A stretch of DNA of 64,000 nt from Escherichia coli (GTDB lineage: Bacteria > Pseudomonadota > Gammaproteobacteria > Enterobacterales > Enterobacteriaceae), in assembly GCF_003334335.1 (NCBI RefSeq), contig NZ_QOWQ01000008.1; one strand, given 5' to 3'. Made by a program: the position numbers. Of the stretch, positions 9,001 to 12,000 are shown piece by piece (the stretch's first letter is position 1; every line of letters starts with the position of its first letter).

Positions 9001-12000
9001 TTATCCATCTCGACCAGATAACTGCCATTGCGCCCACGGCGTTCAATCCGTATCGCTCCGCTTGATTCCAGCGTTTTCAACGCGGCCTGCGTCAGGCCAA
9101 CGGATGAACGGCATTCATTTGCCAGCTCATCTATGGTTTTCAATCGATTACCGCACTTTTCACCCAACAAATAACGGGCCAGCGTCGTGATGACGACGCC
9201 TTCTTTTTTGATAAACGTTCGACGCATAATAAATTTTCAGTAAATTGAATATTTATATCTTCAGGAATTTGAAGATAAGGCGCAACAGCGAGATGTGGAA
9301 ACGGCGAGGCACTTCACATTTTTTCGGATTATTGCAAATGAGGATAAAAAAACCGGGTTTCCCCGGTTTCAGAGTGATGATAAAAGCAAAATTGCCTGAT
9401 GCGCTACGCTTATCAGGCCTACATTTCCTTGCAATATGTGCATTACTTTGTAGGCCGGATAAGGCGTTCACGCCGCATCCGGCATGAACAAAGCGCAATT
9501 TGCCAGCAATAGTGAATTACGGCTTCGCCACAAAACCAATCGCTTCGTACACCGCTTTTAGCGTACGGGAAGCGTGCGCGCTGGCTTTTTCCGCGCCATC
9601 TTTCATCACCTGTTGCAGGAAGGCTTCATCGTTGCGGAAACGGTGATAGCGTTCCTGCAATTCAGTCAGCATACCGGAAACGGCATCAGCCACTTCACCT
9701 TTCAGATGACCATACATCTTGCCTTCGAACTGTTTTTCCAGTTCTGGGATGCTCTGGCCCGTTACCGCTGAAAGGATATCCAACAGGTTGGAAACGCCCG
9801 CTTTGTTCTGCACATCGTAGCGAACTACCGGCGGCTCGTCGGAGTCAGTGACCGCACGTTTGATTTTCTTCACTACCGATTTCGGATCTTCCAGCAGGCC
9901 GATAACGTTATTGCGATTATCGTCAGACTTGGACATCTTCTTGGTCGGCTCCAGCAGCGACATTACGCGCGCGCCAGATTTCGGAATAAACGGCTCCGGC
10001 ACCTTAAAGATCTCGCCATACAGCGCGTTGAAACGCTGGGCAATATCGCGGCTCAGTTCGAGGTGCTGTTTCTGGTCTTCACCCACCGGTACCAGATTAG
10101 TTTGATACAGCAGGATGTCCGCTGCCATCAGCACCGGATAGTCAAACAGACCAGCGTTGATGTTCTCGGCATAACGCGCAGATTTATCTTTAAACTGCGT
10201 CATGCGACTCAGTTCGCCGAAGTAGGTATAGCAGTTCAGTGCCCAGCCTAACTGTGCATGTTCCGGCACGTGGGACTGAACAAAAATGGTGCTTTTCTCA
10301 GGATCGATACCACAAGCCAGATACAAGGCCAGCGTATCCAGCGTCGCTTTACGCAGCTTCTGTGCATCCTGGCGCACGGTGATCGCGTGTTGGTCAACGA
10401 TACAGTAAATGCAATGGTAGTCATCCTGCATGTTTACCCACTGACGCAGCGCACCCATGTAGTTACCAATGGTCAATTCACCTGAGGGCTGTGCGCCACT
10501 AAAAACGATGGGCTTAGTCATTTTTCGATTCCTGATTTTCGCTATGCGGAAGCCCTAATGCGGGCAGAAGGTCATTTATAGACTGATAAATTACATCAGG
10601 CTGGCTGAGATCGATAGCCTCGCCGTAGTTATATCCGTAGGTTAAGCCAACTGATGGGCAACCTGCCGCTTTTGCCGCCTGAATATCATTGCGTGAGTCG
10701 CCGACAAACAGCATCTGTTGTGGGGCAATTCCCATCCGCTCAGCCACCAGTAACAGCGGGTCCGGATGCGGTTTTTTGTTTTGCACATCATCACCACCAA
10801 TCACCACGCTGAAGTATTTGGCGATATCTAAGGCTTCGAGCAGCGGCGCGACGAACGGCGTCGGTTTGTTGGTGACCAGGCCTAGCGGCAGGCCTTTAGC
10901 CTGCAACGCGCCCAACGTATCGGCAACGTGCGGGAACAAAAACGTCCCCTCTTCGGCAACCTCGCCATAGTAGCGATCGAACAGTTTACGCAGAATACGT
11001 ACCTGTTCTTCTGCCGGAATGTCGTCATCAACGGGCGGTTTACCCATTGTTTTACGCTGAGTCGCACGTTCCTGACGCGCCCAGGTCAATGCGCGCTCCA
11101 TCAGAACATCTGCGCCGTTACCAATCCAGGTAATAACGCGTTCTTCACCTGCGACGGGCAACTCCAGCGCATACAGCGCCATATCTACCGCAGCAGCAAG
11201 ACCAGGAGCACTGTCGACCAGCGTACCATCAAGATCAAAAGCGACGCCGCGAATATCTTCAAACTTATTCATGACTTACCTTTGCCAGTTCACTGCGCAT
11301 TTCATCAATGACTTTTTTGTAGTCTGGCTGGTCGAAGATTGCCGAACCGGCGACGAACATATCCGCGCCCGCCGCAGCGATTTCGCCAATGTTGTTCACC
11401 TTCACGCCACCGTCCACTTCTAGTCGAATGTCAAAGCCAGACTCGTCGATACGGCGACGTACTTCGCGCAGTTTATCCAGTGTTTGAGGAATGAAAGACT
11501 GACCGCCGAAACCAGGGTTGACGGACATCAGCAGGATCACATCCAGCTTATCCATCACGTAATCCAGATAGCTCAGAGGTGTCGCCGGGTTAAATACCAG
11601 ACCCGCTTTACAGCCATTTTCTTTAATCAGTTGCAGCGTGCGGTCAACATGCTCGGAGGCTTCTGGATGAAAGGTAATGATGCTGGCACCAGCGGCAGCG
11701 AAATCAGGCACAATGCGATCGACGGGTTTCACCATCAGGTGTACGTCGATAGGGGCGGTAATGCCATAGTTACGCAAGGATTTCAGCACCATTGGCCCAA
11801 TCGTCAGATTGGGAACATAGTGGTTATCCATGACGTCAAAATGCACGACATCAGCGCCAGCTGCCAGGGCTTTTGCGGTATCTTCACCCAGGCGGGCAAA
11901 ATCAGCCGACAGAATTGAGGGGGCAATCAAATACTGTTTCATCCGCTTCTCCTTGAGAATTATTTTTTCGCGGGTGAAACGACTCCTGGTTTGTACAAAG

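Follow-up and report, generated by a model that had tools for sequence, protein, structure and literature searches.

Two BIME-1 repeats downstream of trpS and glpD in Escherichia coli probably descend separately from a shared family consensus

The repeats that follow trpS and glpD in Escherichia coli are very probably independent members of the BIME-1 (RIP/RIB) family: all features that the two have in common belong to the family consensus, and each copy descends from that consensus separately, not from the other. Both lie in a 64-kb stretch of E. coli DNA (hereafter, the window), 51 kb apart. A preliminary description of the window had placed composite BIMEs downstream of the two genes, in the same orientation, and our arm and profile matches bear this out, with both on the + strand. 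It had also called them near-duplicates, and that part does not hold, because the tail, the head, and the central linker that they share are family consensus, and other pairs of copies are just as similar. Both copies are ordinary, already catalogued BIME-1 elements, and their biology is known.

BIME-1 elements have been described as single-copy units of one z1 and one y REP with a long conserved L linker, often with an IHF site (Ton-Hoang et al., PMC3333891). PMC2817692 gives the same composition of y and z1, with an IHF site in the conserved L linker, and Chiapello et al. (PMC1187871) give a size of ~140 bp and likewise define the element by one Y and one Z1 unit in inverted orientation. In the alignments presented here, the unit is a block of ~150 nt that comprises a conserved left flank, a Y REP hairpin, an L linker of ~35 nt, an inverted Z1 REP hairpin, and a conserved right flank. 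Boccard and Prentki reportedly named the same elements RIB (reiterative IHF BIME), and Oppenheim et al. RIP (repetitive IHF-binding palindromic element), both in 1993; the conserved outer flanks are reported to go by the names of motifs A and B.

The window corresponds approximately to positions 3,503,117–3,567,116 of NC_000913.3 (MG1655 annotation), and a 1.2-kb piece around the trpS-side element, positioned between trpS and yhfZ, matches K-12-type E. coli chromosomes at 100% identity. The gene order runs from frlR through yhfS-yhfZ, trpS-gph-rpe-dam-damX-aroB-aroK, hofQ-M, mrcA, nudE, and igaA, and onward to malQ, malP, malT, rtcAB, glpR, glpG, glpE, glpD, yzgL, and glgP (Table 1). In the window, glpR (56731–57489, minus strand) is an intact 252-codon open reading frame, compared with a 758-nt pseudogene in NC_000913.3; this produces a 1-nt coordinate offset and means that the window is not from the MG1655 reference stock. 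The window also contains direct repeats that are 73–88% identical and ~14,061–14,079 nt apart (47275–49179 and 61336–63258), which stem from malP and glgP, two paralogous phosphorylase genes, and not from a repeat element.

Table 1. Positions of the two BIME-1 copies, their parts, and neighboring features in the window.
Feature	Position	Strand	Remarks
Single REP hairpin	1669–1704	-	directly after frlR
boxC-like repeat	~1727–1785		follows the single REP hairpin
ORF with LPDALRLSGL, trpS side	9245–9487	+	
Terminator-like hairpin with T-run	9349–9370	-	abuts the BIME-1, downstream of it as trpS is transcribed; kept in 3/3 spacer alleles
trpS copy, complete BIME-1	9367–9512	+	146 nt; profile search (nhmmer) E = 2e-39
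trpS copy, left flank	9367–9392		
trpS copy, Y hairpin	9393–9422		
trpS copy, L linker, shortened	9423–9449	+	27 nt, 8 nt below the canonical 35 (7-nt gap plus 1-nt gap)
trpS copy, Z1 hairpin	9450–9484		
trpS copy, right flank	9485–9512		
trpS	9517–10521	-	
Third BIME-1, degenerate but complete	22331–22464	- (inverted)	E = 2e-28; fills the gap between convergent mrcA and nudE
5'-truncated BIME-1	36598–36687	+	downstream of yhgF; profile positions 76–133
Two inverted Z-type REP hairpins	44769–44856		16-nt linker; between convergent gntT and malQ; not BIME-1
glpD	stop codon ends 60402	+	
glpD copy, complete canonical BIME-1	60438–60593	+	156 nt; profile search E = 6e-46
glpD copy, left flank	60438–60464		
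glpD copy, Y hairpin	60465–60494		
glpD copy, L linker	60495–60529		35 nt
IHF-consensus-like site ATTCAATATATTG	60505–60517	-	12/13 to WATCAANNNNTTR; fixed family position in the L linker of the glpD copy; NC_000913.3 ~3563621–3563633
glpD copy, Z1 hairpin	60530–60564		
glpD copy, right flank	60565–60593		
ORF with LPDALRLSGL, glpD side	60449–60691	+	
yzgL	60608–60901	-	faced by the glpD BIME-1

The family was sampled with a pattern scan of one genome per species, across bacteria and archaea, in which the pattern fixed only the inner end of each REP arm and left the linker and flanks free. The scan gave at least 120 loci, in Escherichia albertii, another E. coli, Pseudocitrobacter, Citrobacter, Kosakonia, and others. 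A spacing of 35 nt, exactly that of the glpD copy, occurs in 72 of the 139 matches listed, and 88 canonical copies among the matches listed have the same flanks and linker and align to a consensus of ~155 nt, which reads GAGACTGATGACAAACGCAAAATTGCCTGATGCGCTACGCTTATCAGGCCTAC in the left flank and Y arm, AAGGTTTCTGCAATATATTGAATTTGCACGATTTT in the linker, and GTAGGCCGGATAAGGCGTTTACGCCGCATCCGGCATGAACAAAGCGCACTTTGTCAGCAATCTGA in the Z1 arm and right flank. A BLAST search among these loci (at least 120) for orthologues of the trpS, glpD, and mrcA loci found none, and an Rfam gathering scan of the whole 64-kb window matched no families. In E. albertii, a tandem of four BIME-1-like units, each with a complete L linker, has a 147-nt period, whereas BIME-1 of E. 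coli is described as single-copy. Enterobacterial REP doublets of BIME type also turned up on short contigs assigned to unrelated taxa, namely a Bacteroidales MAG and Desulfosporosinus sp. OT (a 262-nt contig, the copy on which has the canonical BIME-1 linker); contamination or mis-binning is the most likely source of these.

Measured against this family, both study elements are complete units. The profile behind the E-values in Table 1 was built only from copies in other genomes, with the window copies left out, and the values obtained mean similarity beyond chance. Both copies match this 88-copy profile across both arms, with Y and Z1 in inverted orientation. Each site holds a single unit of about the ~140-bp size, tandem amplification being absent, and both units are extragenic at 3' ends: the trpS copy stands after the trpS stop codon and before the operon terminator, the glpD copy after the glpD stop codon. 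The linker matches the consensus at 29 of 35 positions in the glpD copy (35 nt) and at 18 of 35 in the trpS copy (27 nt); the long L linker is present in both, that of the trpS copy being recognizably the same linker with a deletion.

For a control within one genome, ten 50-kb samples (500 kb) around MG1655 plus the window were searched with the window-free profile. Eight further full-length MG1655 units were found, at yfeS/cysM, yfeW/yfeX, dacB/obgE, cueO/gcd, tcdA/mltA, barA/gudD, glxK/allE, and sodB/ydhP. Together with the three in the window, the eight in 500 kb of MG1655 extrapolate to ~90 full-length units per genome.

When the trpS and glpD copies are aligned with each other, the Y-type arm falls inside a 30-nt exact run (9393–9422 = 60465–60494) and the tail inside a 24-nt exact run (9474–9497 = 60554–60577), while the Z1 arms (9450–9484 versus 60530–60564) match at 32 of 35 positions. 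The similarity also spans ~25 nt to the left of the Y arm and ~28 nt to the right of the Z1 arm, so that the resemblance beyond the REP arms noticed in the preliminary description is real, and wider than it had noted, extending over ~9367–9512 and 60438–60593. Two of the three differences between the Z1 arms (window 60544 and 60553) make up a compensatory change from G-C to A-T in the inner stem of the glpD copy relative to the trpS copy, which fits maintenance of the hairpin.

The two exact runs are what could make the pair look like a specific near-duplicate, recently copied or homogenized by gene conversion, and two further observations point the same way: of the 11 K-12 copies sampled, these two alone have the tail GGCATGAACAAAGCGCA as an exact 17-mer, the rest being 1–2 bases off, and in the right flank the identity of the pair is tied first for the trpS copy. 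Over the whole element, however, identity within the pair is 78.9%, an unremarkable value for the BIME-1 family, as 19 of the 55 pairs formed by the 11 K-12 copies are at least as similar. The best K-12 partner of the glpD copy is the yfeS/cysM unit, ~1 Mb away, at 88.4%, and that of the trpS copy is the dacB/obgE unit at 81%; as each other's neighbor, the two rank 4th and 6th of 10 same-genome copies, and 17th and 49th of 89 other-genome copies among the matches listed. Their L linkers are 45.7% identical and set apart by an 8-nt indel. The tail is, letter for letter, the consensus of the 88 other-genome copies among the matches listed, so its exact form in only these two K-12 copies is expected, both simply holding the consensus state.

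Comparison with the consensus leads in the same direction. At 126 positions, computed with selected positions masked and with the consensus taken from the 88 copies among the matches listed, the trpS copy is identical to the consensus at 99 and the glpD copy at 111, against 92 for the two with each other. Only three non-consensus states are common to the pair, each of which is also present in other copies and none of which is exclusive to it, and the private differences number 14 and 12. The relationship is that of a star-like family and not of a duplicate pair. The near-duplicate reading is largely refuted by now, and we regard it as extremely unlikely. That the copies might share nothing except a generic consensus has turned out true in spirit, since the consensus concerned is that of the ~150-nt BIME-1 and not the 35-nt REP consensus. 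Similarity that continues beyond the arms is the hallmark of this larger unit and is no evidence of recent copying.

In one functional respect the copies differ, namely in the linker, and that the trpS copy is without one family feature, the full-length linker with its IHF core, speaks against the independent-membership reading. Of the 9 other K-12 copies sampled, 6 have a match of 12–13 out of 13 to WATCAANNNNTTR at the linker position of the glpD site, 4 of these with TTCAA. In the trpS copy, the best match in the linker is only 11/13 with the core replaced; the linker deletion takes away the TCAA core of the IHF-like site, TTGAAT being removed by the 7-nt gap. Judged by sequence, the glpD copy can be classed as IHF-type and the trpS copy cannot; the latter is a BIME-1 but probably not a functional RIP or RIB. 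A 41-mer that spans the trpS linker deletion occurs in exact form in 1,734 genomes, which is all but one of the 1,735 with BIME-1 at trpS. The trpS copy can be taken as a natural IHF-site deletion variant, a minor point, but possibly a useful one.

Both sites vary among E. coli isolates, the trpS copy being present in 1,735 and the glpD copy in 2,111 of 5,426 genomes. The trpS spacer (window 9371–9516) is tri-allelic in the species, with BIME-1, boxC-like, and short or empty forms that have the same outer breakpoints. The 1,735 genomes with BIME-1 carry the K-12 allele with the linker deletion. In the boxC-like allele (1,525 genomes), most of the unit is replaced and the K-12 left flank persists in its first 11 nt, whereas the empty allele, found in B2/APEC strains, has 17 nt between terminator and stop codon. 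Between the short and the K-12 allele, the entire spacer, including the BIME-1 flanks, differs as one block, in agreement with the flanks belonging to the repeat; the polarity could be either insertion or excision, as far as sequence goes. We consider it unlikely, though conceivable, that the spacer from trpS stop to terminator is a site of recurrent replacement. If it were, it would offer a natural series for insertion, excision, and overwriting of whole BIME-1 units, flanks included. One further candidate event at this site, an IS1 insertion into the trpS BIME of NZ_CP063473.1, was rejected, as the IS1 lies just upstream of yhfZ (~9210–9250), outside the repeat.

The other repeat of the trpS spacer, which also stands beside the REP at 1669–1704, is one that we take to be boxC. 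It resembles BIME-1 in being an intergenic repeat family, one that occupies the trpS spacer in other strains and adjoins that REP, but its sequence (CCCTCACCCTAACCCTCTCCCCAAAGGGGCGAGGGG) is unrelated and lies outside the BIME-1 unit. In 342 of the 5,426 genomes, of the O157:H7 lineage, yhfS-yhfZ (window ~1727–9516) are missing altogether, and a single hybrid boxC repeat, inside which the junction falls, links frlR with its REP to trpS. This fits either recombination between boxC copies in direct orientation or arrival of the cluster at a boxC. Downstream of glpD (window 60403–60900), the chromosome is hypervariable, and the full K-12 arrangement is present in 1,255 genomes only. E. coli 536, for example, departs from K-12 right after the glpD stop codon, with a plain hairpin terminator and different genes, without BIME-1 and yzgL.

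According to the preliminary description, recombination between the two copies would delete the segment between them. The geometry is right, since direct orientation is confirmed, and one could picture the direct repeats as an active substrate of homologous recombination that deletes or tandemly duplicates the 51-kb segment. Exact identity over 30 and 24 nt is close to the minimal length for RecA-dependent exchange that Shen and Huang reportedly found in 1986, and REP sequences were reportedly observed by Shyamala et al. in 1990 at the join-points of duplications in Salmonella. We built the predicted junctions, which run from the yhfZ side through the BIME to the yzgL side for the deletion and from glpD through the BIME to trpS for the duplication. 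Neither occurs in any of the 5,426 complete E. coli genomes (0/5,426 each), a set of assemblies that would miss rare transient duplications. The interval holds trpS, the sole tryptophanyl-tRNA synthetase gene, so its deletion would be lethal; igaA, also in the interval, has likewise been reported to be essential. In addition, the 21% divergence between the copies would invoke mismatch-repair anti-recombination, and ~90 other copies compete as partners. We find no sign of recombination between the copies in the 5,426 genomes; duplication may occur at low frequency, but an active recombination substrate is very unlikely.

The open reading frames that contain LPDALRLSGL had been called spurious, and rightly so. 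Two such frames of 80 codons each are indeed present and could be imagined to encode real small proteins, but they have only the REP-encoded KLPDALRLSGL in common, after which the 8-nt indel shifts the frame. A scan of both against NCBIfam returned no family matches, no CDS is annotated at either site in MG1655, and the conservation is of the DNA and its hairpin, on both strands. The frames are repeat artefacts, and that they encode proteins is almost out of the question.

The further REP sites that the preliminary description had listed all exist, but were under-described. The one at 22331–22464 is a complete BIME-1 unit, with a divergent Y arm (23/29) and an L linker that contains an IHF-like ACTCAATAAATTG (12/13). 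The one at 36598–36687 is a truncated BIME-1, in which the Y hairpin is reduced to its end and the L linker to a part, while the Z1 hairpin is present and the right flank weak; this repeat stands just after the yhgF stop codon, in the same layout as the trpS copy. The remaining two are the two-hairpin element at 44769–44856 and the single REP at 1669–1704.

Among known systems, the two study elements are most readily compared with the BIME-1 of Gilson, Bachellier, and Hofnung, which is the element also called RIB or RIP. As in this, one Y and one inverted Z1 are present in a single copy per locus of ~140–155 nt, which lies outside genes where transcription units end (3') and varies in presence among strains, and the glpD copy has the long IHF-like linker; the trpS copy differs by a linker that is 8 nt shorter and without the IHF core. 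BIME-2 and atypical BIMEs, which are gyrase-binding, tandem Y/Z2 arrays, likewise have alternating REP hairpins, and the element at 44769–44856 resembles one such unit, but the two study elements have the long L linker and the Z1 hairpin and are not amplified in tandem. REPINs, the doublets mobilized by RAYT/TnpA-REP, are also alike in having two inverted REPs and a spacer that form one long hairpin, and in their block polymorphism; the 64-kb window, however, has no transposase gene. The TnpA-REP of MG1655 is described in PMC3333891.

These observations can be assembled into a model of what the units may do. Since the trpS BIME-1 stands between stop codon and terminator, it is transcribed as the 3'UTR of the operon that ends in trpS, and the glpD unit likewise falls in a 3' untranslated region. 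The 3'UTR RNAs of both copies fold at −71.2 kcal/mol (z = −6.3) and −70.0 kcal/mol (z = −5.5), far better than shuffled controls, into a very stable long hairpin with predicted pairing of one REP arm to the other across the linker. REPs serve as mRNA stabilizers and, in part, as terminators (bioRxiv 10.64898/2026.03.23.713779), and the hairpins would thus be expected to stabilize the upstream mRNA and to attenuate read-through, while the L linker of canonical copies would bind the DNA-bending protein IHF, as the literature suggests. For the trpS copy, whose IHF-like site is lost, the prediction is a role as RNA hairpin alone. IHF binding and mRNA effects are inferred from the literature. The way in which the trpS spacer, flanks included, differs among strains as one block fits a unit that is gained or lost in one piece, and the literature would attribute the spread of such units to the REP-associated tyrosine transposase TnpA-REP.

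In annotation, the two sites should be entered as two catalogued BIME-1 repeats and neither as a duplication nor as a rearrangement hotspot; beyond this the finding has little import. That E. coli strains differ at both sites fits with REPs being regarded today as 3'UTR regulators that vary between strains.
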